DNA of 63,577 nucleotides, the filler included, from Licmophora abbreviata (lineage: Eukaryota), in the NCBI GenBank assembly GCA_900291995.1. It is 8 parts of 8 records of this genome, joined end to end, with 100 filler letters (N's around TTAATTAATTAA, not from the genome) between each part and the next. Parts side by side here need not be neighbours in the genome. Positions count along the whole stretch, not along the records: positions 1 to 20,500 come from OLMU01003711.1; 7 more parts are not named here. One strand, 5' to 3'. This document shows positions 4,303-20,098 of this stretch, in pieces. The first letter of the stretch is position 1; each line of letters begins with the position of its first letter. A program made the position numbers and the translations under genes. Below the pieces are notes generated by a model that saw only the letters and a list, made by a program, of their open reading frames with translations, was not told where the DNA came from and searched no databases.

Positions 4303-7300
4303 TCAGTCTTGGCCTCTCAAAAAGGCGGCAATCGTGTCGCAGGTGCGTGACAAGTACCCAAAGCCCGGTTTGGTATTCCGAATCAACTGGCGTTGAAGGC
4401 CCTGGGCATCCACGCTACTGAGACTATCTTCCGAACCACCATCGAGGCTCACATTCAACGGTACAAACGGATACGACCTGTTAAACTCAAAGGTGGCCAG
4501 CACCTCTTCGCTGGAAGATTGCCGCTGGGAGAAGCCAACCGAAAGTAAAAAGTCCGTGCCAGTTCCCTCCGGATCTGCCTGAAGAGCTGCACGGTACCTC
4601 TTTTGAAGCATGGACAGCTCGATGGCGGCTGTCTCGATGCGGCCCATGGCCCACTCGGTTTGACGGACCAATTCTCGGACCTCCACGATCGAGTCGAAAG
4701 TGGCTCGATTGGCCGCCTTGACAATGGGGGCCACATGGGCTTGGAGAAAACTGGACATTGACGGAGTCACCTTGAGACTCCTTCCTGTAAGCTGGCGGAA
4801 ATGCGATGCGTTCACTCGGGCTGAACACGTAATTGACCCGGACTTGGAAATGTCAAACATCAAGTCCACGCACGTTCTAGGGCTCGCTCCAATCACGGCA
4901 ACAGAAAGCTTGGAATCGTCGATCTCGCTCGGTACCCAGCTGTGCAGAGCAGCAAGAGTCATGAACTGACTCTGGAAAGACTCAGCTTTCGAACGAGCGA
5001 CGTCAAGTTCAGCTTTGGAAGCGGACATGTCTTTGAGATATTCGAGGCGTCCTTCTTCTTCCTTTACGGCTTCTAGCTCCTTCTTCGCGTCGGCGATCTG
5101 ATCTTCCATGTCCTTTAGGCGATGTTCGAGGGTAGAAACAGCATCCTTGTGGAAAGATGATGATGACGACAAAATTCTGAGCATGTAGTGACATATGGGA
5201 ATGTCGAGTCGACCGATTTTCGATGTGCTTACCTTCCTACGATTCACGCTTCGTCGCCGTGCTTTTCTTGCCGCTCGGCCTTCCAGGAGAGAGAGGGCGC
5301 CCTGGGCTTCATCAGCGAGGCTGATGCATCTGTCGACTCTATCTTTGTCTTCCAAAGTTTCTTCAGAGATAGCATCGAGAGCTCCAAAAAGCGACTTGGC
5401 GACTTCGACCTCCCACCTCATCCATTCAAACTCGACGCATTCCGATGCCGCCTTTGCAAGCTCTTCGAGATCCCCCGTCACCTTGGACACGTCTTCGCCT
5501 CGAAGCGCCTTCTGAAGGGCCGAAAGCGTTGTTGATTTGCTCTCGACAAGAGCACTGAAACATGTATCAGCGTCAGGACCAGCCTGAGCTTTCCCATCCA
5601 CTTCGTTGCAAACGGCATCAATGAAGCGTCCGACGGTCTCACTAATCAGCGGGTGGCTAATGACGTCCGTAAGTCGACCAACGTCGAGGACAGCATCATT
5701 CCTCGTATCGTTCATAGCCGTGTGATTGTAGAGGGACAATTTTGCCCTTTCGATCAAACCTGCGCTTGACAAATCAATGGACTCTGGCGAGTCGTTGTCC
5801 AGGCTAAAATGCAGTGGTGCAATTCCTTCACCTTGCGTCATCAGAGCGGATGAGTCAGCGGCGGACAGAATTGATGTGCGACCACTCGGAGTCAAGCTGA
5901 AGCGGTGATGAGATCGTCTTCGACTTTCTGAGGGAGTAAGAGGAAGAACCGAACTCTCTTCTTCCCACGGTCCAACATCTTCACTGGTGCTCACTGCTTC
6001 ACTGCCTTCCAGAACTGCCCCCATGTCAGTTTCCAGTTCCGTCGTGGGGTTCTCGTCGCTGTCATGAAGACCGAAGCGTCCAGGATTTTCACCAAAGGAC
6101 ATTCGGTTCGTAGATGGTGCAAGATTGCTCTGCACTTTGGGGAACTTGTCTGATAGCCGCGAAGGAGCTGGGGCTTCGCGAAACGATGATGTGTCTTCGA
6201 CTCCTGAAGTGGCGAGCAAAGTAGTCAGGCTCGCTTCGAGCTCCACCGTGTCATCCTCGCCATCTTTTTGCGCTTGATTCATGGCGTCAGTCTCCGCACT
6301 GGTCGCGTCGACGTTCTTGAAGCTGAATGTAGATTCGTTGTCACTGTCGATTCCCAAAGTCTCCATGGCTTTTACTGATGGGGGGGCATGCGACTCCTGC
6401 ATCTCTTCATCGGAAGAATCGTCAATTCCGGTGCCACTCATCGAGAGACCCGGTTCGCTGTCGACTGTCGTGTCAAGCAGTCCCTGAATACTAGGCTCGA
6501 GCTCGACAGTGATGTCTTCCTTGCTGAACGAGTGGGCGGACTTCGGCACTACGTCCGCCAGAAGGTCAGCCACAGCCACCTGGACTTCAGACGTGTCATC
6601 TCGCTCGGTCTCTTTCAACGGATTTCCGCTTTCTTCCTCGTTCGTTGTGCCGGACTCGGGAGCACTACCGCTCTCGTTGGTCTGATCGACATTCTGGATC
6701 AGTGCATTGAGATTCGCCTCGATTTCGGCGGTTGTATCCTCCATGTCCATGGAGATATCTGCACCGGAAGAGTCCATGGAATCGCCATTCTCTGACGAAG
6801 AAGAGTTGGTGTTTGGAATGGAATACATGGCTTTGACGTCACCTTTCGGCATAGGGGTTAGATTGACTGACGGGCTGCCAATGCGGTACTCCGCCGCTTC
6901 TGGAGATCCGAAGACAACTGCTTTCCGTGTTACCGATCTGTCAGTCCTAGAAGAGTTCAAGATACTCTTTGGTGCTGTGCTAGCCCAAATCGAGGGCGAC
7001 GGAGATTTGAGCGAAGATCCGGACTCTCTCGCTTGCACTGTTTCCGATATACCCAGTAGAAGGTTCAAATCTTCTGTGTTGGCGGTGCTAGTGCTGCCAA
7101 CCGAGCTTCTGCGTCGCTTGTCTACAGGCCCCATGGTAATATCAGACACCCGCCCGCCCATATCGCGAGCAGAGAATGCCAATGTTCCTGCAATCTCTTC
7201 CATAGGTCCGTCGATACGCTGTCTCTTCCCATCGACCTGATGCAGATGGGGCGTAAGTTCAACAGGACTGCTGCTGACCCCCCTCTTTGCCGAGGCACTA

Positions 7301-8580
7301 CGAGTGTTGCGCGCAGGAGAATCGATTGACTCTGGGTTCAACACGCGCTGCGGTTTGGGAGATAGCTTCGTTGGCGTCAGCTTCTTCTCATGCGAGCTGG
7401 GACTGGGCCGGATGTTGGTGGTGGCGGGAGAAGTCGGCGGTGAAAAAGAAGGCTGCGAGACTTCCTCAGTTGGGTTCTGCTCCTCGGCAGAGACGGAGGC
7501 AGCTGCTCCGCTTCGAGAAGTCTTGGTGGAGTGCGGCGTCCCAGGTCGATCGGCGATGCTTGCAATTGTCGAATAAGGAGATTCAGTCTGAGCTTCGTTT
7601 GACGAGCCAGATAATCCAGCAGGCGAAGGTGTGGCAGAGTCGCCACCTTCCAAACTATCCAGCAGCTCTCGCAGGGACATATTCGTAGTATCCACGAGAC
7701 CGTCTCCATCCTCCCCAGCTTTTCCCGGGGACTTGGAGCTAGCCGGTGGTGGCGTCAGAGGTGGCACAGCGAGCAGACTGCCACCGATCGAGTTTCGACG
7801 AGCCTGTCCAACTGGCGTCGAGGGGGTAGAGAGCAGGACGCCAACCGGCAGCGACTTTCTCCTACTTGCCGCTCCGCCTTCTCTGGTCTTCCGCAGACTC
7901 GAAGTCATCGCCTCGATCGCAGATAGAGACGTTCGTGGATTGGTCTGCCGCACTGAGCCCACAACACGCTCTTGCTGGACAATAGACACAGGATTGCTGT
8001 TGTTTGCTGGTTTCAGAGGCTCGCGCTTTTCGACAGCGACATTGACAAGTCCCTTTGACGGGCTGGAACTGCCCATTTTCCTGTTTTCTGCATTCGATGT
8101 CGAAACTTGTCCTCCCTCATTGCCCGTCCTTGCAAGCTCAAACATTCTCTGCCTCGAACTAGCTGCCAAGATAAAGTTCGAGGCCGTCAGCTCCGTCGTG
8201 TCGCTCAAGACGCTCTTGTTCAGCAAGTCGCTACCGTCGCTAGAGCTGGAGCCCATGCTGAGCATGCTCGTTTCTGCCAGATTGGTCGTCTCGTCATCCA
8301 GCTTGCTTCTGTCCATCTGTGAACTCTTTGCGATAGAATGAGGAGTATTCGGAACGTCGGAGAAGTAGTACGCCGAAGCCGCGGCACTGCCAAGACGCAA
8401 ACGATGCTTGGATGGCGTTGTCGTCATTGGCGTCGCAGTCGCTTTGTTCGTCATTGGAGCTCCTCCAATAGTTCTTCTACGCTGCTGTTCCTTCGAGGCA
8501 CCCCTTCGTTCGATACCCTGGTCGCTCACGCGCCGTTCATCCCGCTGTCGGGGAGCCGACAACGCAGAGGGGGTCGTCAT
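4303..8580 (-). CDS. KNL1/Spc105 (Spc7)-like outer kinetochore scaffold
   Basis: Long disordered Ser/Thr-rich region. SILK/RVxF-like pair (PKSILNS...RKAVVFG) followed by acidic T-x-E-L/I-E repeats, then a coiled coil and a C-terminal globular region compatible with tandem RWD (FEFNRSYPF). Probable stopless 87-nt intron at 5146-5232. Confidence 0.6.
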   Translation of the reverse strand: MTTPSALSAPRQRDERRVSDQGIERRGASKEQQRRRTIGGAPMTNKATATPMTTTPSKHRLRLGSAAASAYYFSDVPNTPHSIAKSSQMDRSKLDDETTNLAETSMLSMGSSSSDGSDLLNKSVLSDTTELTASNFILAASSRQRMFELARTGNEGGQVSTSNAENRKMGSSSPSKGLVNVAVEKREPLKPANNSNPVSIVQQERVVGSVRQTNPRTSLSAIEAMTSSLRKTREGGAASRRKSLPVGVLLSTPSTPVGQARRNSIGGSLLAVPPLTPPPASSKSPGKAGEDGDGLVDTTNMSLRELLDSLEGGDSATPSPAGLSGSSNEAQTESPYSTIASIADRPGTPHSTKTSRSGAAASVSAEEQNPTEEVSQPSFSPPTSPATTNIRPSPSSHEKKLTPTKLSPKPQRVLNPESIDSPARNTRSASAKRGVSSSPVELTPHLHQVDGKRQRIDGPMEEIAGTLAFSARDMGGRVSDITMGPVDKRRRSSVGSTSTANTEDLNLLLGISETVQARESGSSLKSPSPSIWASTAPKSILNSSRTDRSVTRKAVVFGSPEAAEYRIGSPSVNLTPMPKGDVKAMYSIPNTNSSSSENGDSMDSSGADISMDMEDTTAEIEANLNALIQNVDQTNESGSAPESGTTNEEESGNPLKETERDDTSEVQVAVADLLADVVPKSAHSFSKEDITVELEPSIQGLLDTTVDSEPGLSMSGTGIDDSSDEEMQESHAPPSVKAMETLGIDSDNESTFSFKNVDATSAETDAMNQAQKDGEDDTVELEASLTTLLATSGVEDTSSFREAPAPSRLSDKFPKVQSNLAPSTNRMSFGENPGRFGLHDSDENPTTELETDMGAVLEGSEAVSTSEDVGPWEEESSVLPLTPSESRRRSHHRFSLTPSGRTSILSAADSSALMTQGEGIAPLHFSLDNDSPESIDLSSAGLIERAKLSLYNHTAMNDTRNDAVLDVGRLTDVISHPLISETVGRFIDAVCNEVDGKAQAGPDADTCFSALVESKSTTLSALQKALRGEDVSKVTGDLEELAKAASECVEFEWMRWEVEVAKSLFGALDAISEETLEDKDRVDRCISLADEAQGALSLLEGRAARKARRRSVNRRKVSTSKIGRLDIPICHYMLRILSSSSSFHKDAVSTLEHRLKDMEDQIADAKKELEAVKEEEGRLEYLKDMSASKAELDVARSKAESFQSQFMTLAALHSWVPSEIDDSKLSVAVIGASPRTCVDLMFDISKSGSITCSARVNASHFRQLTGRSLKVTPSMSSFLQAHVAPIVKAANRATFDSIVEVRELVRQTEWAMGRIETAAIELSMLQKRYRAALQADPEGTGTDFLLSVGFSQRQSSSEEVLATFEFNRSYPFVPLNVSLDGGSEDSLSSVDAQGLQRQLIRNTKPGFGYLSRTCDTIAAFLRGQD

Positions 8581-8850: not shown

Positions 8851-10680
8851 CTAGACAAATATGATAGTTTCATATCCCCCGGGTTGTCTTTGAGACAGCT
8901 GCTGTGCCTTATCCGCCCGCACAAAGTAGTGTTCAAAGAACTCCACCATCAGAATCGAGCATAGCACTACCAGCAACGCCACCGCCGACCAGCCGAAAAA
9001 CCACCCCGCCCCCTGCGGATTGCCTTCCTGAACCGCGTCGCCGACGACTTTCCATACCATTGATCCAAGTCCATTTGCAACGCCGTCAGTATACGCAGCG
9101 TAGAGGCCCTTGCTGTGACCAAAGGTGGCTCCCACAAGACCAGGAATCTGAAAGCTCTGAACTGCAATCCCAAATCCCATTGCCACAGACGTAACTACTT
9201 GAAAGACAAGAATCAGTTCCGGTATTGCGAGAAGCTGTCGAACTTTGGGAATTGCCAAAACCGCCAGCATGTAGCATCCACCAATGGTGCACATGTACAG
9301 TCGTACTATCATTTGCTTGCGCGCATGCGCATCTCGTCTCGTAAACATCCTTCCCGCAATCGCAATTCCAAGCAAGCTTCCAAACGAAAGAGACACGGCC
9401 AGTCCACTTGCGCGACTCTCCGTGAGCGAGTGAAGCGATGTGTCACGAAAATAGGTCCCGAGGAGACGTTCGGAGGACCGTACCATACAGGCGGCTGTGT
9501 GTGCGATTGCCACGACCCAGAATCGTCCGCTGCGGAACAGTGTCCGTATCGATGGGATCAAATTCGTCTTGATGACAGAGGTAACAAGGCCACAGATTGC
9601 CATGACCGTTCGTAGAAGCGACGTGGATGCTCTCATTCGAACTCCAAACTCCTTGAGAGTACTATGACTGACTGGGTTCTGCGGATCGTGTATGTTGAGA
9701 GGTGAGTCGTAGACAAGAAGATAAATCACGGCAGCTCCTATAGTGGACAGCATGGCTGCCATGTGCGCTACTGCTCTCCAGTGCAGCCGCGTCAAGAGCA
9801 TGGAGGCGATTGGAATCGCTACAAGCGACCCAAATCGTGATGACAGCGACGTTGTAAACAAGCCTTGCTCGTAGGTGCCCTTGGCCTGCGATCGCGAGTG
9901 CGCCGAGAGAAAGACAACAATCGACGGCCATTGTCCCGATTGAAAGAATTCTGTCAAGAAGCATGCCCAGAGTGCCGTCCTGTCTCCTTGGCAAAGTGAC
10001 AAGAGCAGCAAGGATGCTGACAGCAGTAAACTGAGGGTTGTCGATACGCGCCGCGCTCCTAGGACATCGCAGGCAAAGCCAGTCAATAACTTCCCCAGGG
10101 CACCCCCCGTGAGAGACACGGCAGTTGCGTGGGCGGCAAACGAAGCGTCACTCATCTCCAAAGCAACCGAGGGAATCAGTGCAATCGGTGTCGCTGCTGC
10201 TGCAGTGGTGAGTGCGTACGCGACCGACAAGACGAAATTCAATCGATTCCAGGTGGGCAGGTTCTCCTCATTGGACGCGATCATCCAGTCATCTGGATGA
10301 GGCTCTTCGAACATGAAGCCAAGAAAGTAGCCCGTGAAACCGTCTGGTTTCTCGCTTTCGTTACTTCCTTTCCAGCTCAGATTGGTCTGTCCAAAGAGTA
10401 GAGAAGTCTTGACTTCGTGGTCGTCCTTCTCGGACGCGACAGATGCCGTTTCAAAGAGAGGCGTCCGATCTGATACAGAGTGTATCTGATGTAATGAGGG
10501 GCGTCGACGATTCTGACTATTTGCCGTCTGGGTTGCCGGTGGAAGAAGCAAAGCGTCGTCCAAATTTTCATCTTCTTCTTCTTCATACTTGTCGGTGGTA
10601 CTCAAGGAAAAGAACGAGCGCTGCGACGAAAGCCACGCCGCTTCATCGTCGGATGCATGCATCGAACTCGTCGTCATCAT
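8851..10680 (-). CDS. Major facilitator superfamily transporter (OPA/SLC37/GlpT-like)
   Basis: About 12 hydrophobic helices. MFS motif-A-like GKLLTGFACDVLGARR, plus QWP and SSRFG motifs. Acidic N-terminal extension. First ATG at 10680 (the ORF track starts at 10833). Confidence 0.8.
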   Translation of the reverse strand: MMTTSSMHASDDEAAWLSSQRSFFSLSTTDKYEEEEDENLDDALLLPPATQTANSQNRRRPSLHQIHSVSDRTPLFETASVASEKDDHEVKTSLLFGQTNLSWKGSNESEKPDGFTGYFLGFMFEEPHPDDWMIASNEENLPTWNRLNFVLSVAYALTTAAAATPIALIPSVALEMSDASFAAHATAVSLTGGALGKLLTGFACDVLGARRVSTTLSLLLSASLLLLSLCQGDRTALWACFLTEFFQSGQWPSIVVFLSAHSRSQAKGTYEQGLFTTSLSSRFGSLVAIPIASMLLTRLHWRAVAHMAAMLSTIGAAVIYLLVYDSPLNIHDPQNPVSHSTLKEFGVRMRASTSLLRTVMAICGLVTSVIKTNLIPSIRTLFRSGRFWVVAIAHTAACMVRSSERLLGTYFRDTSLHSLTESRASGLAVSLSFGSLLGIAIAGRMFTRRDAHARKQMIVRLYMCTIGGCYMLAVLAIPKVRQLLAIPELILVFQVVTSVAMGFGIAVQSFQIPGLVGATFGHSKGLYAAYTDGVANGLGSMVWKVVGDAVQEGNPQGAGWFFGWSAVALLVVLCSILMVEFFEHYFVRADKAQQLSQRQPGGYETIIFV

Positions 10681-12114: not shown

Positions 12115-15100
12115 CTAAAACGTTCCGTACCCACCACCAGAGGACGGAATCATAACACTTGCGGCAGGAGATCCCTGCCAAACACTGTCCGCTTCGATGA
12201 CTTCCCCAGTCATGGCGAGACTCTTCTCCAACAGCATCGAGCCACGCTCCATGTAGACGCCTTGCTGGATGCGAGCTCGCGTACGAAGGGTCGTCTGGTC
12301 CTCCATGACAATCTTCTTCAACTCAAAGTTGCCGCGCGTATTCAAGTGACACACAATCGAAGAGCAGTCCACGACGCATCGATTGCCAATCTTGACGAGA
12401 TCGGGTTCCGGCATGTACGGGTCGCCTCCGGAAGGGTATAAGCAACAGTCTTCACCGATATCGCCACCCAAAAGCCGAAAGAATGCCGTCATGTATGGCG
12501 TGCCCGAGATGAAGTCCATCAAATTGAGTCGACCGACCTTGCGGATCTTGCCCATGATCTGGTACAGCTCCCATCGCTGGGCATAGTCTGACGTGTCGTA
12601 GTTGTAACGGCCCTCCTTGCGTCGCCCGATGAATGCCCACTTGCCGAAATACTCGTACGCCAGCCAAATGGCGACGCGCATCGCATGCGCAAAGAAGAAC
12701 ACAAACAGAAGCGTCCAGTACACCACTCCTGGAGAGTAGAAGAACCTGTGGTAGTTCCTCTGCTGGATCGGTAGCCCGTATAGGATACAAGCAGCCCCTT
12801 GAAGCGAAGCCAACAGAGGGAACGACTGCACAATCGCAATGAGCACCTTCGTCATGAATGTATAGAAAACAATGAAACCCAGAGAGTAGACTCGATAGGT
12901 TGCCTGTCCGAGATAAAAGGCTTTGCCGAATGGACTGATAGTCGTGTTGTCTCCTTCCATGACCAACCGGTCCATCTTCACTTCCGAGGCGAGCATGTGA
13001 CCTCCCAATTCTGCTTCTGGTCCCTGCTCAAGCATCATTGGTTCTCCGCGTTGGCAGCCCAACCAGACACTCCCTTCAGGGAGGTACCATCCTTCCGGGC
13101 ACAAGGAATTGGAGCCCAGCACAGCGTTCTTCCCAAGAATACCTCCAGGGAGAACAACGGAGTTGTCCGAGACATTCGACCCGGCACACAGAGTGATTCG
13201 CTCGCACGAGTCAACTGTCGTGAAAAACAAGGCCGACCGTGACCCAAAGACAACATCGTCACCAATCTCCAACAAGTCAAACTCGCCCGTCATAATCGGC
13301 TGATGTCCAGGCCAGAACACTCGCTTTCCGACCTTCGCGCCAAGCATACGGTACAAGATGCTCACAAGCTCGTAGTGTCGACCGAGGAGTTCCGTCACAT
13401 TCTGAATATTTTCACGAGAGAAAAGCTTCATGGCCAACCAATGACGAAGTAGCTCCCACTGGGAACTCGTGTCGCGAGGACCAGCTTCGAACCTGCCAAT
13501 CACAGTCCACTTGATAAAGATTGCGGTTGCCATGTAAACAAACGGGGAAACGGTCGAGCGAACAATTCGAATTGAGATGTAGAACGGAATACGGCGAACG
13601 TCACAGAGCCAACGCATCAGTCCGCTCATCGAATGAAACGTATTGCCCCTGTCCCATGCGAAGGACACCATCCAGAGAACAATTAGCAAAGCTGGAACGT
13701 GGGACAAAGCGTCCACGAAAAATGTGATGGGTCGTCCGATGAATGTCTCTACCGCCAGGCTCGGCTCCGGCAGCGTACGGCGATTGTAGCGAGCGTGTTG
13801 AGGGTCGGAGTTGCTCTCAACTTCGTAGCTCGACGTCACAGGAGCGAGATGCGTATCAGCCGGTATCGACGTGAACGGCGCGACAACCGATCGAGCACCC
13901 ACGCTGGAACGATCACCGACACTCACGGGTCCAAGAATCATGCAACCTTTGTCAACGCCGAATGGACGCACATTGGCGAATTCAATCGCGACGTCCTTTC
14001 CGATGTTTACCAGGTCATACTCGGCAACCTCTGCCTCGATACTGATACGTGCGCCGCTGCCGATCTTGGCCCCCAGGAGCCGGTAGAAGATATTCAGGGC
14101 GACTTCGCTCGACCCCCAGATGCCGCGTCCCATGATCTTGCGACACATGTCGACGAACCACCAACGCAAGTAGTAACTGCTCCAGATAGCGTATCGGCCT
14201 TCCTTGTACTTGCCAATAACAATCCACTTGATTGCCACGAACAAAAGTGGTGTCACTGAAACCCACAGCACATGAAAACTCAACACCGTAAACACGAAGG
14301 TTCCAATGTTGTTCGTGCCGGGGACATGGTCCAGCATCCTCAACAAAAATGAGAAGAAGAGGAAGAAGCGCGAAAGCTGCCAGACTGGAAAGACCACGAG
14401 AAGAGGAATCAGCTGGAACAGACGCTTCAACAGACTATCCTGCGGGACAAGCTTGCGAGAGTCCAACAACGGCTCGCCCTGGCTGTCCATGTCAATGCTG
14501 TGAAACGCGGCTGCAGCGTCGTACCCGGATCCTTTCGCGCCACTTGAAGACTTAGAGCCGGCGGCTCCAGCTCTCTCCCGAATCAACGACGCAATAGCAT
14601 CACAGGTCATGTGATGAAAAACTTCCGCTCCACTGAACGGAACTCCATGACCCTTGCGAACTTTACTGGCCAGCTGCGAAGCCAGCATCGAGCTGCCTCC
14701 CAAGTTGAAGAAACTCGCAGACGGAGAAGGAGCATAGTCAAGATCCAACAAGAGCCCAAAGATGTCCTGGACGTCCTTCACTAGTGGGTCAACGGGACCA
14801 GACGACTCGTCGGCTCCGTTTAGGATTGCCATTACCGAGTCCGACGCCTTTGGTGCGGGAAGAGTCGTATCTCCATCGGGCGGCCCAGAGAGAACGCAGA
14901 CATGACTCGGAACTGAATAGCGGTCGAGCTTTTCCATAGCAGCATCGACGACTTCGTTACGACCGATGTTATACACGTAGGCAACCACAACTCCGGAGCG
15001 CCTCGGGTGAGCCTTCACGGTAAGATACTGTCCTGCCTTCTTGACAATCGCCTCACGAAGTTGTTCTTCAACAAGAGACGGGTCAACCAAAACACGATGA

Positions 15101-16983
15101 CAGGTAATTGCGACGCCAATAGGTGTCCCCTGGGGAGGACAGTGGGCTTCGAATGTTCTCTCAATCGATGGAAGGCTGTCGCTGAGCTCCGGAAGTCCCA
15201 GACGCTGCCCGAGCTTAACGCGCAACAGCTTGTTCGTGTGCGACTTGGGTAGAGCGTCAATAAACACCAATGCCTGCGGCCACTTGGGCGCTGCCAAACG
15301 GTCATCACCCAGGTACTCATGAAGCTCCTGCAAGTCCACCCTCGGTACGCCAGGGACAGGAACAATTACGATACCCACAACCTCCTGCAGAACGTCGTGC
15401 AGTGCCGAGAAGGCAGCACACGCCTTGACATGCGGATGGCTCAGAACGGCTTCCTCCACTTCCATGGGACTGATAATTTCTCCACCGCGATTAATCACCT
15501 CCTTCGACCGGCCTGTAATGTACAAGTATCCGTCTTCGTCTAGATGGCCCAAGTCGCCCGTATTGAACCAGCCGCCTTCCAACAAAGTTGCCGGAGGACC
15601 CGCCTTGGGATCGGTGTAATTCACACCGTAACCACCAAAGCATGGTTCTCCACGGACACAGATCGGTCCTTCCGCGCCAGCGGGAAGCGACTTGAGGGTG
15701 GACAAGTTCAGAATGGCCACCTCGGGTCCGACTGGCACTCCACTGGTACCTGGCTTCTCCAACTGATACGTGGCTGGCGGAGAACTAATCGGCATGCACT
15801 CCGTCATACCATACGAAGGGAGGACGTTCGCCTTGAATACCTCGCGAAGCTCGAACGCCAGACTGGGAAGCAAGCCCCCGGCGGCGTTTGCAATCATGCG
15901 CAACCTGGGGTCGACAACATCACTGTCGCTGCGGCTCTGAAGGAGCACCTGGTGCATGCTGGGTGAAGCATAGTACCAACTGAAGCACTTCTTCTCGAGC
16001 AACGCCCAAAAGATAGACGGGTCGAACGAAGGACAGCAAATTACGCAGCCTCCCGACACCATGGGAGAGAAAACTTGACGGACGATCCCACCAACGTGAA
16101 ACAGCGGCATCAAGTTGCAATTCACGTCCGAAGGACTCAAATTCCAGCTCAGAGCAATGGTCGCGGCAGCAATCAGCATGGATCCTAGACGATGTGGGAC
16201 GACCTTCTTGTTGCCGGTGGTCCCAGACGTGAAGAGGACAAGCACTTCGTCGTCGTGGGTGTTCGGGTGAAACTTGGCGACGTCTTCTGTCGACGAATCC
16301 TTCTTTTCTTCCTGAAGAGCCGAAAACTTGGAGGTAGAAGGCATCAAACGGAAGATTCCAGCTTCGACCTTGCTCGGGACGAGACCCATGAAAGGAATGT
16401 CAAGACGGTTAGCGCACTCTTCAATGTGAGCAAAGGCGGCAAAGTCCGTAGAGCCAGACGACCCAGGGGGAAGAACGTTGAACTTGTCGCGATCGCCGCC
16501 ACGCATCTCGAGCGGAGTCGTCTCCTCTTGCATGTCACCGGAAACGAGACCGACAACAACGTCGGCGCCGCATGCTCTGAGATCTTTTTCGAGCTCGCTC
16601 CTGGCGCCGTTGGCGTTCATAGGAACGCAAGTTGCCCAGTTTGCGATTCCCAGGATGGCGAGCGCAAGCTCGGGGCCGTTGGGAAGCACGAGCGCAACTC
16701 GATCGCCACGCCCCACGCCAGAGCGATACAAGGTCGGTCCAAGCTCATGAGTGATGAAGTCTCGAATCCGCTTGTGAGAGATGGGCGCGCGTCCGTCAAT
16801 ACTAGCAAGTGCGTTTGCATTCGTCTTGGTGTTTTCTTCTGTTGGGATGGCAGAACAGAAACTTGAAAAGTGAGGTAGAACAGCTTCCCCAACTTGACTG
16901 CCGACGATCTTGCCGCTCGGCTGGAGCAAGTGCTCGCAGAGGCGGAGCAAAGGGGCGACCTCCGAGGCCTCTTTGTCTGTCAT
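12115..16983 (-). CDS. Membrane-bound NRPS-like enzyme: adenylation + phosphopantetheine carrier + Pls-type C-terminal region (3 TM/left-handed beta-helix repeats)
   Basis: A-domain motifs FTSGTTGNKK, YGMTE, FNTGDLG, GRSKEVINRGGE and LPKSHTNK. Carrier motif FFNLGGSSMLA (Ser codon 14689-14691). Three repeats of KW..IG....G.......RW...LGAK/GD-I/VG with hexapeptide beta-helix segments, separated by TM pairs. Intronless, about 1622 aa from ATG 16983. Confidence 0.9.
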   Translation of the reverse strand: MTDKEASEVAPLLRLCEHLLQPSGKIVGSQVGEAVLPHFSSFCSAIPTEENTKTNANALASIDGRAPISHKRIRDFITHELGPTLYRSGVGRGDRVALVLPNGPELALAILGIANWATCVPMNANGARSELEKDLRACGADVVVGLVSGDMQEETTPLEMRGGDRDKFNVLPPGSSGSTDFAAFAHIEECANRLDIPFMGLVPSKVEAGIFRLMPSTSKFSALQEEKKDSSTEDVAKFHPNTHDDEVLVLFTSGTTGNKKVVPHRLGSMLIAAATIALSWNLSPSDVNCNLMPLFHVGGIVRQVFSPMVSGGCVICCPSFDPSIFWALLEKKCFSWYYASPSMHQVLLQSRSDSDVVDPRLRMIANAAGGLLPSLAFELREVFKANVLPSYGMTECMPISSPPATYQLEKPGTSGVPVGPEVAILNLSTLKSLPAGAEGPICVRGEPCFGGYGVNYTDPKAGPPATLLEGGWFNTGDLGHLDEDGYLYITGRSKEVINRGGEIISPMEVEEAVLSHPHVKACAAFSALHDVLQEVVGIVIVPVPGVPRVDLQELHEYLGDDRLAAPKWPQALVFIDALPKSHTNKLLRVKLGQRLGLPELSDSLPSIERTFEAHCPPQGTPIGVAITCHRVLVDPSLVEEQLREAIVKKAGQYLTVKAHPRRSGVVVAYVYNIGRNEVVDAAMEKLDRYSVPSHVCVLSGPPDGDTTLPAPKASDSVMAILNGADESSGPVDPLVKDVQDIFGLLLDLDYAPSPSASFFNLGGSSMLASQLASKVRKGHGVPFSGAEVFHHMTCDAIASLIRERAGAAGSKSSSGAKGSGYDAAAAFHSIDMDSQGEPLLDSRKLVPQDSLLKRLFQLIPLLVVFPVWQLSRFFLFFSFLLRMLDHVPGTNNIGTFVFTVLSFHVLWVSVTPLLFVAIKWIVIGKYKEGRYAIWSSYYLRWWFVDMCRKIMGRGIWGSSEVALNIFYRLLGAKIGSGARISIEAEVAEYDLVNIGKDVAIEFANVRPFGVDKGCMILGPVSVGDRSSVGARSVVAPFTSIPADTHLAPVTSSYEVESNSDPQHARYNRRTLPEPSLAVETFIGRPITFFVDALSHVPALLIVLWMVSFAWDRGNTFHSMSGLMRWLCDVRRIPFYISIRIVRSTVSPFVYMATAIFIKWTVIGRFEAGPRDTSSQWELLRHWLAMKLFSRENIQNVTELLGRHYELVSILYRMLGAKVGKRVFWPGHQPIMTGEFDLLEIGDDVVFGSRSALFFTTVDSCERITLCAGSNVSDNSVVLPGGILGKNAVLGSNSLCPEGWYLPEGSVWLGCQRGEPMMLEQGPEAELGGHMLASEVKMDRLVMEGDNTTISPFGKAFYLGQATYRVYSLGFIVFYTFMTKVLIAIVQSFPLLASLQGAACILYGLPIQQRNYHRFFYSPGVVYWTLLFVFFFAHAMRVAIWLAYEYFGKWAFIGRRKEGRYNYDTSDYAQRWELYQIMGKIRKVGRLNLMDFISGTPYMTAFFRLLGGDIGEDCCLYPSGGDPYMPEPDLVKIGNRCVVDCSSIVCHLNTRGNFELKKIVMEDQTTLRTRARIQQGVYMERGSMLLEKSLAMTGEVIEADSVWQGSPAASVMIPSSGGGYGTF

Positions 16984-17778
16984 CTTGGTGCACCTGTTTC
17001 GAAAAGTGTGACGATCCCAAGAAAATTGAGAAACAACGAACGTGTTCCCGTTTCGCAGGTGCAAAAGCGAACATCGGAGCGAAAAAAGTCAAAGTCCCAA
17101 AACGATGCGGCACTTGGCGACGAAATAGATGCCCACGTAGGCCTGTACCAAAGACACGTGGCGAATCTCCGTCGAATCTTCCGTGCAGGCGTGAGAATCA
17201 TTGAACTCGAAAGTGCGGCCTTCCATGCATCCGATCGATAAATCCTCGTGCGTCACCATGAAGATTTGTGTTCAACTTCTAATCGTCACTACGAAATATT
17301 TGTGCATAAATATTGCATGAAAAAACTATTGGACGATGGGGATTTGAAGTTCAGACCCACTTCCGGGTCTTGTTGAAAATGCAACATGCATCGTCGTCTG
17401 TCCCTCATCCGCGTCGACGCTCATTTGCGCACTTTCCTCCAACGGACTGTCACATCTGACATTTTGACATTTTGAGCATGTCGCACATCTTGCAGACTTT
17501 TTGCGCACCTGGCGAAGCACAGACGGATCGTGGTACGTCCCTCTGTCACCATCCATCCCGTTGACGCCGGTCGATTGACCGACGACATTCAACATGATGG
17601 TGGGACGATGGACTGGATGGATGGCACGAACAGCAAGTTCTGAAAGTAGAAGAGTCTAGTCTAGGATCCTGATATTCTCTCTGTTCCGGCCTTTGAACTT
17701 TTAAGTTTCTTGTGCAATTTATCTCCTCGCTCACGCTCAGGAGCGATTCTCTTGCGAAAACGAAGTAAAGACGGAGAC

Positions 17779-20098
17779 ATGACCATGTTACAGTCGACGG
17801 CCCTCCTCCTCGGCGCTCTCCTTTGTTCTGTAGCAGCCTTTTCAGGGCATTCCCTAAGGTTGACAACGCAAACGTCAAGACATGATGTTCAAAGGACTCT
17901 CAACATGGTATCAGTAAGCTCGTCACCGGGGGAAGCTGTGTCGTCGATTTCTACGCCCAGCAAGTATCCGACCGCTCGAGGCTCCGAGGTCGACAGTCGA
18001 AAGATTGTTGCCAATCACAAGGAGCGCTTGACAGCGATTCGACTGTCGCACATTCTATTTGCATCGGAAGAAATGGCCTCCAATAGTCTTGCAGAGCTGC
18101 GTTCTGCACATGTTCCGTTTGAAGACCTAGCACGTCAATTGAGCAACTGTGAGGAGACACGCTCACACGGTGGGTCTGTCGGGTGGGTCAGTCTGGGGAA
18201 CGACGATGTCACAGACGCGAATGAACACTTGGATGGAATTTTGCCTCATGAGGCGCGTCTGGCGGTTACGGATATGACGACCAAGCCTGGGGATGTCGTC
18301 ATGGTCTCGTCGACGCGTGGGTTCCATCTGATTCAGATTGTTGATGTCATGGTGGATGTCCGGAAAATGTCAAATCGCAAGGTTCGACCGGCAGCCAAGA
18401 TTGAAGGTTCGGGTGAACCGGTTCAGCTCCAGGGTATTTTGGGAGGAGCATTACTAAGCGACGAATCAAAGGACCTGACTTACAAGATGGAGACGATGGG
18501 CTGTCAAATGAATCTGGCGGACAGTGAACGAATGGAAGGTCAGCTTCAGGCACTGGGAATTCGACCACTTTTACCGGAGGACGAGAAGCCGGCAGATCTT
18601 GTGGTACTCAACACGTGTTCTATTCGTGATCATGCTGAACAAAAAGTCTATTCGTGAGTACCCTTGAAATAGGATCGTCGCTGCGATTGACGTATGCTAC
18701 TGTAAGCTGCTGACCACCATCTATCTTCCTGTCTGTCTTGTTCAGTTACATTGGACCCTATGCGAAGCGAAAGCGCGAGGGCGAGGACGTGGCGATCGTT
18801 GTGGCGGGATGCGTCGCACAGCAAGAGGGAGAGGCGTTGCTTCGTCGGGCGCCTGAGGTTGATTTGGTCATGGGGCCGCAATATGCGAATCGGCTATCTG
18901 ATCTACTCGAGGATGTCTCGAACGGCAATCAGGTCGTCGCTACTGAGGCAAGCCACATTATGGAGGATTCGACGAAACCTCGACGGGCGTCTACTGTTGC
19001 TGCGTGGGTGAATGTCATTTATGGATGCAACGAGCGCTGCACATATTGTATCGTGCCAACGACTCGAGGAGTGGAGCAGAGTCGCCCGCCGGAAAGTGTT
19101 GTGCAAGAAGTCGAGGAACTGGTGAGCAAAGGGTACAAGGAAGTTACATTGCTTGGTCAGAATATTGAGTAAGTGAACGCAAACAGGCCTTGAGTGTCAT
19201 TTTGCTGTTGTACGGTTGACATGTTCTCACTATTGCGTGATTTATCATTGTTGTTATATTTATTGTTATTCTGCGAGCACAGTGCATACGGGCGAGACAT
19301 GATTCCAAAGCGAAAGTTCAGCGATCTGCTCCGCACGGTAGGCGCGGTAGAAGGATTGCAACGACTTCGGTTTGTCACGTCCCACCCTCGGTACATGAGC
19401 CTCGGTGTCATTGATGCCGTCGCCGAAACTCCGGCCGCCTGCGAGAATTTTCACGTGCCGTTTCAGAGTGGATCCAATGATATCCTCGCCGCCATGGGTC
19501 GTGGGCATACGCGAGAGAAATATCTCACCATTATCGACCGCATTCGAAGCGTAAGTTCATTCTATGCAACGTCTCCTCGTTACGAATCTCCTTATCGCAC
19601 AGCCTAGACACTCATTATCGCTTTGAACGCGCCCACACGTTCCAGCGCCTACCGGACGCCTCCATTACAGCAGATGTGATTGTCGGGTTTCCGGGCGAAA
19701 CCGAAGCCCAATTTCAAGATACCTTGAGCTTGATGGAAGAAGTCATCTTTGATTCCGTCAATACGGCAGCGTACTCTCCGCGTCCCAACACACCCGCCGC
19801 CGTGTGGGAGAATCAACTGTCCGAGCAAGTCAAACAGGATCGTTTGCAACGGATCAACGCGCTGAACTTGCAGCATGCCGCCATGCGACGGGCACGAATG
19901 CTCGGTCGGACGGTGGAGATCCTTGTGGAGGAGCGCAACGTCAAGGTGCCGACGCAAGTGATGGGGCGAACCACTCAGGGATTTATTGTGTACTGCGACG
20001 GAGACATTGATGAGCTGCGAGGAAAGTTGGTGTATGTGGAAATTGACAACTGCCAAACGTACTATTTATCGGGAACAAGAAGAAGTATTTCAAATTGA
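17779..20098 (+). CDS. miaB: Plastid-targeted parvulin (PpiC) domain fused to tRNA-i6A37 methylthiotransferase MiaB
   Basis: Exons 17779-18653, 18746-19168, 19283-19550 and 19646-20098 splice in frame at GT-AG. UPF0004 domain (TMGCQMN...NTCSIRD.AEQK), radical [19 protein letters not shown] and C-terminal TRAM. Upstream rotamase motifs [23 protein letters not shown] and GFHLIQ. Presequence ...CSVAA-F. Confidence 0.92.

Follow-up and report, generated by a model that had tools for sequence, protein, structure and literature searches.

A candidate polymalate-synthetase-type gene in the diatom Licmophora abbreviata

We analysed a 63,577-nucleotide stretch of DNA, filler included, assembled from records of the diatom Licmophora abbreviata (GenBank assembly GCA_900291995.1) and here called the window, in which positions 12115..16983 on the minus strand hold a single open reading frame (ORF) of 1622 amino acids. 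We found that it encodes a single-module enzyme resembling non-ribosomal peptide synthetases (NRPS-like), with an adenylation (A) domain of acyl-CoA-synthetase type, a carrier and a triplicated membrane domain, and we put the chances at about even that it is a polymalate-synthetase-type enzyme: a malate-type polyester synthetase related to the polymerase that makes epsilon-poly-lysine (Pls). As part of this explanation, sequence relationships suggest that the A domain derives from small-dicarboxylic-acid coenzyme A (CoA) ligases. Pls-type polymerases and a fungal polymalate synthetase are already known; the diatom members are undescribed in the open-access literature that we searched.

Architecture of the protein

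The minus-strand frame is open upstream to a TTG at 17064, with its first ATG at 16983 and its stop codon at 12115-12117 (ORF listing with ATG starts). BLASTP alignments with eight diatom relatives began at query residues 2-11 for seven of the eight and ended at residues 1608-1622; because these relatives align end to end, the gene model is complete and needs no intron or missing exon. The original prediction, made from the DNA alone, had described an intronless diatom gene, and this description held throughout: the motifs it quoted (PLFHVGG, YYASPSMHQ, SYGMTE, KEVINRGGEIISP and LGGSS) lie at the positions claimed, and the three repeats it listed (KWIVIGKYKEGRY with YLRWW and GAKIG; KWTVIGRFEAG with LLRHW and GAKVG; KWAFIGRRKEGRY with GGDIG) are all present. 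The features of the gene, from the 5' end of its coding strand, are as follows.

12115..16983, minus strand: whole coding sequence, 1622 codons plus stop (ORF listing and end-to-end BLASTP with diatom relatives)
15628..16749, minus strand: N-terminal part of the A domain (AMP-binding), acyl-CoA-synthetase type (Pfam E 1.4e-51; NF004511, 245 bits)
16087..16107, minus strand: PLFHVGG motif, with His at the amino-binding Asp position and Gly in place of His216 of the oxalyl-CoA synthetase AtAAE3 (alignments; PMC8905533)
15874..15888, minus strand: NAAGG motif, with Ala-Ala for Cys288-Ser289 of AtAAE3, the oxalate-binding Ser being lost (alignments)
15787..15816, minus strand: SYGMTECMPI motif, a family signature, with Gly for Ala313 and Pro for His319 (alignments)
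15229..15462, minus strand: C-terminal subdomain of the A domain (Pfam AMP-binding_C, E 8e-10)
15220-15249, minus strand: PKSHTNKLLR, containing the catalytic Lys, which is conserved across the family alignment
14773..15219, minus strand: conserved stretch of ~150 residues leading from the A domain to the carrier (FEAxCPP...), of no known family (consensus in two family alignments)
14584..14772, minus strand: carrier (thiolation, T) domain (Pfam PP-binding, E 1.2e-06)
14689-14691, minus strand: codon of the phosphopantetheine-attachment Ser, the second Ser of LGGSS, aligned with the GGxS serine of the family
13759..14433, minus strand: module 1, with helices at 14326-14409 and 14218-14307, then KWIVIGKYKEGRY and a left-handed beta-helix (AlphaFold2 helices 27-54 and 61-90; hydropathy; TIGR02353; hhalign)
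12883..13758, minus strand: module 2, with helices at 13654-13758 and 13498-13599, then KWTVIGRFEAG and a beta-helix (AlphaFold2 helices 244-278 and 297-330)
12118..12882, minus strand: module 3, with helices at 12778-12882 and 12628-12732, then KWAFIGRRKEGRY and a beta-helix (AlphaFold2 helices 536-570 and 586-620)
12346..12348, minus strand: His of CHLNTRG (column H714), a candidate catalytic base, invariant in the alignment

This layout is that of the Pls/PosA family, which the cited sections of PMC10522769 define by an A domain, a carrier and a terminal domain of ~730 residues and by the absence of condensation, thioesterase and reductase domains (section 4); the terminal domain is described there as six helices in three pairs with three soluble segments of ~180 residues, predicted to be beta-helices and related by three-fold pseudo-symmetry (sections 4 and 13). 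In the window protein, Pfam recovered AMP-binding, AMP-binding_C and PP-binding, with Hexapep sub-threshold, and found no condensation, thioesterase or reductase family, while NCBIfam matched the 'Pls/PosA family' model TIGR02353 over three stretches (E 2.1e-60), at a score of 204.9 bits that is under half the curated cut-off of 423.1. The A-T-membrane domain order, the three helix pairs set between three homologous soluble segments and the pseudo-symmetric beta-helices are thus shared with Pls and PosA, as the original prediction had supposed. The A domain is where the window protein departs from them: it is of carboxylic-acid rather than amino-acid type, scoring with NF004511, a FadD7-family fatty-acid CoA ligase model (cut-off 650 bits), and likewise with malonyl-CoA synthetase models, and the bond to be expected from it would be an ester, not an isopeptide.

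The carrier Ser falls at the codon predicted for it, and the GGxS motif is kept in 116 of 120 diatom-like matches. Between A domain and carrier, the stretch at 14773..15219 is conserved from diatoms to fungi, though it matched no Pfam family.

For the membrane domain we modelled the last 790 residues with AlphaFold2 from an alignment of 42 sequences (mean predicted local distance difference test score 90.0, predicted template-modelling score 0.89). The model consists of three units, each combining a pair of long helices with a few short ones and a beta-helix, which is the layout described for Pls. A simple hydropathy scan of the same residues placed five of the six helices above a Kyte-Doolittle mean of 1.5. 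The three modules are mutually homologous, with profile-profile probabilities of 99.3-99.7% in hhalign (E 2.5e-20 to 3.3e-27). Each soluble module follows a helix pair, which suggests that none of the soluble parts is separated from the A-T part by the membrane; a product would then need a way out through or along the six helices.

Structural comparison of the beta-helices (Foldseek, VIA-align) returned serine O-acetyltransferases, type B chloramphenicol acetyltransferases, VatA/VatD and sugar N-acetyltransferases, with Z-scores of 13-14.4 and root-mean-square deviations of 1.8-3.4 A over ~100-120 residues, and Foldseek E-values down to 1.3e-4. VatD was aligned onto module 2 (model residues 369-528, Z 13.4 in VIA-align), and the serine, chloramphenicol and streptogramin acetyltransferases mostly onto module 3 (model residues 655-780, Z ~14), making module 3 the most like CoA-dependent O- and N-acetyltransferases. 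Each soluble module shares with these hexapeptide acyltransferases its fold and a pantetheine thioester as donor; in the window protein, however, the three beta-helices lie in one chain rather than in a homotrimer, six membrane helices anchor them and the donor is a covalently linked carrier. Searches for a solved Pls-type structure found none in the structure collection searched, either by sequence, where only weak matches to gamma-carbonic anhydrases (best E 2.5e-4) and to hexapeptide proteins came up, or by Foldseek, where the query-normalised template-modelling score was at most 0.15. The His of CHLNTRG in module 3 is invariant in all 42 aligned sequences, among them three relatives with other A-domain types, and H.N.RG is present in 95 of 120 diatom-like and 198 of 217 other matches; it is a candidate for the catalytic base.

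Substrate pocket and relation to fungal polymalate synthetase

The solved structures closest to the A domain (phmmer) are all of oxalyl-CoA synthetases, 6qjz at 220 bits, 5ie0 (AtAAE3) at 219 and 8aff at 185, a group comprising AtAAE3, LsOCS and yeast Pcs60; the next solved family, FadD13, follows at 134 bits. The window protein keeps the ANL core motifs together with the catalytic Lys and the carrier Ser. In section 11 of PMC8905533 the residues that make up the oxalate pocket of AtAAE3 are given as Val215-His216, Cys288-Ser289, Ala313-Met314, His319 and Lys500, of which Ser289 and His319 bind oxalate and are conserved only among oxalyl-CoA synthetases. Aligned with 5ie0, the window protein has Val-Gly, Ala-Ala, Gly-Met, Pro and Lys at these places (H216G, C288A, S289A, A313G and H319P in AtAAE3 numbering); the residue becomes smaller at four of the eight positions of the pocket. 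Because Ala and Pro stand in for Ser289 and His319 both here and family-wide, oxalate is an unlikely substrate, and the smaller pocket residues would fit an acid larger than oxalate. The resemblance to AAE3/Pcs60 enzymes noted in the original prediction therefore stands as one of nearest relationship, but both of the residues that define oxalate specificity are absent. Nor are the overall forms alike: oxalyl-CoA synthetases are stand-alone soluble enzymes of ~55-60 kDa, whereas the window protein has 1622 residues with fused carrier and membrane domains, and its thiol acceptor would presumably be its own pantetheine arm rather than CoA.

The same pocket is a property of the family. The column of the amino-binding Asp, which is Asp in two of three outgroup sequences (P0215 and P0244), holds His in the window protein, so that PLFHVGG indeed stands in place of FDxS. 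All three motifs of a pocket signature (P-x-x-H-V/I-G-G, N-A-A/G-G/A-G/A and Y-G-M-T/S-E-C-M-P) occur in 114 of 120 diatom-like matches and in 206 of 217 fungal, protist or unnamed ones, some of the misses being incomplete sequences. One of the carriers of the signature is a protein of Aureobasidium pullulans (P0296).

It is this genus that supplies the closest described counterpart. Three reviews (PMC11286673 section 10, PMC9210645 sections 9-10, PMC11905612 sections 25 and 31) report a polymalate synthetase from Aureobasidium melanogenum ATCC 62921 (Wang et al. 2020), an NRPS-like protein with A-like, T and condensation (C)-like domains, six membrane helices, no thioesterase and a gene of 5049 bp, whose deletion is reported to abolish polymalate production with growth unaffected. 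The route proposed there runs from malate through malyl-AMP and malyl-S-enzyme to the ester bond. Nothing more about the enzyme came from PMC10751350, PMC9647333 or PMC10864419. In PMC11905612 its accession is QHD40385.1 (section 25) and it is assigned to an 'NRPS-like' cluster, with a separate 'NAPAA' cluster in Aureobasidium (section 22), which therefore marks a second Pls-like gene; the 'NRPS-like' placement would fit a terminal domain that scores below Pls-family thresholds.

The window protein shares with the described synthetase its A-like, T and C-like domains, the six membrane helices and the lack of a thioesterase, at a size on the fungal side of ~1680-1700 residues (1687-1700 amino acids for the Aureobasidium family members). 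It is collinear with P0296 from the beginning of the A domain through module 3, sharing 34% identity over 1640 columns (41% within the A domain and 32% within the C-terminal domain), and the two are identical in HVGG, NAAGG, YGMTECMP and the catalytic Lys and have the same A-domain pocket signature. They differ in host and clade, and in the carrier motif, GGSS in the window protein against GGDS.

The original prediction had called similar fungal proteins uncharacterised. This does not hold for all of them: the A. melanogenum enzyme, with exactly such a layout, has been studied genetically according to the reviews. An already characterised orthologue of routine function had been named as grounds for giving the prediction up, and this ground applies in part: the relative in question is a homologue at 34% identity, as judged from P0296, that is not a diatom orthologue and whose function is not routine. 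Novelty is therefore lower than had been claimed.

A word-indexed search with the window protein gave 2431 matches. In the best 120, identity is 47-78% over 75-100% of the query, and those that carry a name are all diatoms: Seminavis, Mayamaea (two genes), Nitzschia inconspicua (two genes), Pseudo-nitzschia, Stephanodiscus, Cylindrotheca, Epithemia and a Bacillariaceae metagenome-assembled genome. The gene is conserved in raphid pennate and centric diatoms, often in two copies. Several homologues are listed as complete transcripts in transcriptome projects (mmetsp), which shows that diatoms transcribe the family. When the C-terminal 790 residues were used in an exhaustive search, 2356 proteins matched at E <=0.001, of which 333 reached E <=1e-30. 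Among 16 distant full-length relatives scanned with NCBIfam (E-value cut-off 1e-45), 13 have the FadD7-like A type (NF004511), 11 of these 13 also passing for TIGR02353, and three match TIGR02353 with a different A-domain type; the 13 of the 16 that matched TIGR02353 at this cut-off scored 167-214 bits. Relatives with other A-domain types (P0208, P0215 and P0244) fall outside the family on the tree.

A profile built from 14 distant relatives gave 1223 matches, and the organisms named within the best 120 come from every major fungal group: chytrids (Polychytrium, Nowakowskiella, Spizellomyces), Mucoromycota (Umbelopsis, Absidia, Bifiguratus), Basidiomycota (Trametes, Schizophyllum, Malassezia, Tilletia) and Ascomycota (Fusarium, Aureobasidium, Zopfia, Uncinocarpus). 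Labels on fungal members include 'acetyl-CoA synthetase-like', 'putative peroxisomal-coenzyme A synthetase' and 'NRPS-like protein biosynthetic cluster'. This breadth is unlike that of true epsilon-poly-lysine synthetase homologues, found in only a few Ascomycota according to section 6 of PMC7179176. Five basidiomycete members (P0298, P0345, P0354, P0357, P0362) carry precomputed RING/zinc-finger Pfam matches alongside their A, T and hexapeptide domains; these may be real domains or artefacts of Cys-rich stretches. Full-length relatives occur in other protists too, and a further search (atlas) returned diatom, ascomycete and proteobacterial look-alikes. Using the pattern YGMTECM, we retrieved full-length relatives from eight prokaryote genomes (three Novosphingobium, one Kitasatospora, two Planctomycetota, two Myxococcota) at 36-38% identity. 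The carrier Ser, the triplicated domain and the CHLNTRG His are conserved from diatoms through fungi to bacteria.

We placed listed representatives on a quick maximum-likelihood tree of 43 rows, then 50 with bacteria, rooted by two outgroup rows and with SH-aLRT (Shimodaira-Hasegawa-like approximate likelihood ratio test) support only. The diatoms form one clade (SH-aLRT 100) with the window protein inside it, which agrees with the named matches in supporting a diatom origin of the gene. Since Mayamaea and Nitzschia each appear twice, the clade has at least two paralogous lines; it is long-branched, adjoins other protist sequences and lies well apart from the Aureobasidium branch. The tree includes seven of the eight bacterial sequences, which group together as one clade among the protists. 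The scatter of bacterial phyla in a clade so nested hints at gene transfer between eukaryotes and bacteria.

Proposed route and alternatives

If the enzyme is of polymalate-synthetase type, its cytosolic A domain would use ATP to activate L-malate or a very similar small hydroxy-dicarboxylic acid, and the acyl group would move onto the phosphopantetheine arm of the carrier Ser. The carrier would offer this thioester to a pseudo-trimeric bundle of three left-handed beta-helices atop six membrane helices, where the hydroxyl of another monomer or of the growing chain would attack it, with the invariant module 3 His probably serving as base. Repetition of the ester-forming step would give an acidic polyester, with the helix bundle as its way out, either through it or alongside. 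Our analysis shows the domains, the triplication of the membrane domain, the family membership and the loss of the residues specific for oxalate; the substrate, the ester chemistry, the length of the polymer and its export are inferred from these. The structural matches of the beta-helices are enzymes that move an acyl group from a pantetheine thioester onto a hydroxyl or amino group, and by analogy we count them in favour of polyester synthesis. Of the proposal that a small acid is activated and transferred at the membrane to one of several acceptors, a growing polymer stays the best reading and oxalate becomes an unlikely acid; given the apparent kinship with polymalate synthetase, the polymer itself, joined through ester bonds, is the likely acceptor.

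Several points weigh against a polymalate-type synthetase. Malate activation by the fungal enzyme is 'proposed' rather than measured in the cited passages of PMC11286673, PMC9210645 and PMC11905612. We link P0296 to QHD40385.1 by size, architecture and genus, and not by accession, and no Aureobasidium family cluster bears the label of polymalate synthetase. At 34% identity, and far apart on the tree, the diatom and Aureobasidium proteins could differ in substrate. The family is spread over much of the fungal kingdom, whereas the polymalate producers named in section 25 of PMC11905612 are few (Penicillium cyclopium, Physarum polycephalum and Aureobasidium), so that its general product may be another. 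The TIGR02353 score is below cut-off, and the fourth membrane helix, the second of module 2, lacks a hydropathy signal and is seen in the AlphaFold2 model alone. Finally, the open-access literature that we searched held no link between polymalate, or polymalic acid, and diatoms, the open-access paper that names both citing diatoms only for the urea cycle. The same literature held nothing on a diatom poly-L-lysine synthetase, on TIGR02353 or on cryo-electron microscopy of poly-L-lysine synthetase.

An alternative that we regard as possible, if rather doubtful, is that the same machine handles another acid, such as oxalate, malonate, glycolate, tartrate or another hydroxy- or dicarboxylic acid, either polymerising it or passing it on a single time to a foreign acceptor, for instance a polysaccharide, polyamine or lipid; in essence, the original prediction had proposed the same. 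The oxalyl-CoA synthetase kinship of the A domain and the scores with malonyl-CoA synthetase models speak for it, as do the long branch of the diatom clade apart from the fungi and the fact that beta-helix acyltransferases usually acylate foreign acceptors, and the literature passages cited here give no substrate measurement for any member. For oxalate itself, the exchange of Ser289 and His319 for Ala and Pro tells the other way, and more generally the identical pocket signature of the diatom and Aureobasidium proteins argues for one substrate class family-wide. The only genetic evidence for such an architecture in the cited passages (PMC11286673, PMC9210645) points to polymalate, and no conserved neighbour from an acceptor pathway was present in the diatom or bacterial loci that we examined.

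A true Pls/PosA-type synthetase of a cationic poly-amino-acid (poly-lysine or poly-ornithine) would account for the TIGR02353 match and for the six helices and three soluble segments that PMC10522769 describes, in its cited sections, for Pls and PosA. It is nevertheless very improbable, being largely refuted by an acyl-CoA-synthetase-type A domain with His at the amino-binding Asp position; in addition, the model score is under half of its cut-off, and the relatives with other A-domain types lie outside the family. Still harder to credit is a free acyl-CoA ligase with vestigial carrier and membrane parts, or a decaying gene, for which the similarity of the A domain to CoA ligases speaks and nothing further, against an intact 1622-codon frame, the carrier Ser, triplicated domain and invariant His conserved from diatoms to fungi and bacteria, and widespread full-length homologues, the best 120 of 2431 all covering 75-100% of the query.

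Neighbouring genes and implications

Directly downstream of the synthetase, on the same strand, a 609-amino-acid ORF at 8851-10680 (minus strand) encodes a major facilitator superfamily (MFS) transporter (MFS_1, E 3e-17). We considered this pairing as a functional link and found it unsupported: in the only other diatom-like locus recovered, from an organism with the same layout at 59% identity (L001, L002), the downstream gene is a glutathione S-transferase. That relative is read on its two metagenome contigs in two overlapping frames of 373 and 1405 amino acids (L002 7228-12448; L001 1647-6867), which suggests an intron or frameshift inside its A domain.

The window holds two further ORFs of note. 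One, at 17779-18657 (plus strand), combines a parvulin-type peptidyl-prolyl isomerase domain with the start of UPF0004 (the N-terminal part of MiaB/CDKAL1-like methylthiotransferases), and probably continues in further exons. The other, a 1425-amino-acid ORF at 4303-8580 (minus strand), has a sub-threshold match to the C-terminal RWD domain of Knl1 (E 8e-4; 20 bits against a cut-off of 27.8) and may be a divergent kinetochore protein.

Around the eight full-length bacterial loci no neighbour was common across phyla, the flanks holding an extracytoplasmic function (ECF) sigma factor with a kinase-WD40 protein, a secretin, a phosphopantetheinyl transferase and unknowns. In Novosphingobium a 4'-phosphopantetheinyl transferase gene (L005 12454-13386, plus strand; also in L006 and L010) lies 3' of the synthetase, a neighbour that fits a working carrier domain, and a conserved ORF of ~880-920 amino acids with no Pfam match precedes the pair.

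Diatoms are major primary producers whose surface polymers shape aggregation, metal binding and silica formation. The window gene has every part that would be needed to build a polymer from a small acid of central metabolism, and we raise, tentatively, the possibility that diatoms, and the many fungi and protists that carry the gene, extrude across a membrane an acidic polyester, either polymalate or something closely similar, for which nobody has yet looked in these organisms. If so, polymalate or a similar polyester would be a new class of biopolymer for diatom biology, and one can speculate that such a polyanion serves at the cell surface, in secreted mucilage, in binding calcium and other metals, or as an anionic partner of long-chain polyamines in silica formation. 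Polymalate producers would then reach far beyond Aureobasidium, Penicillium and Physarum, and a very widespread family of fungal and protist proteins would gain a working hypothesis.

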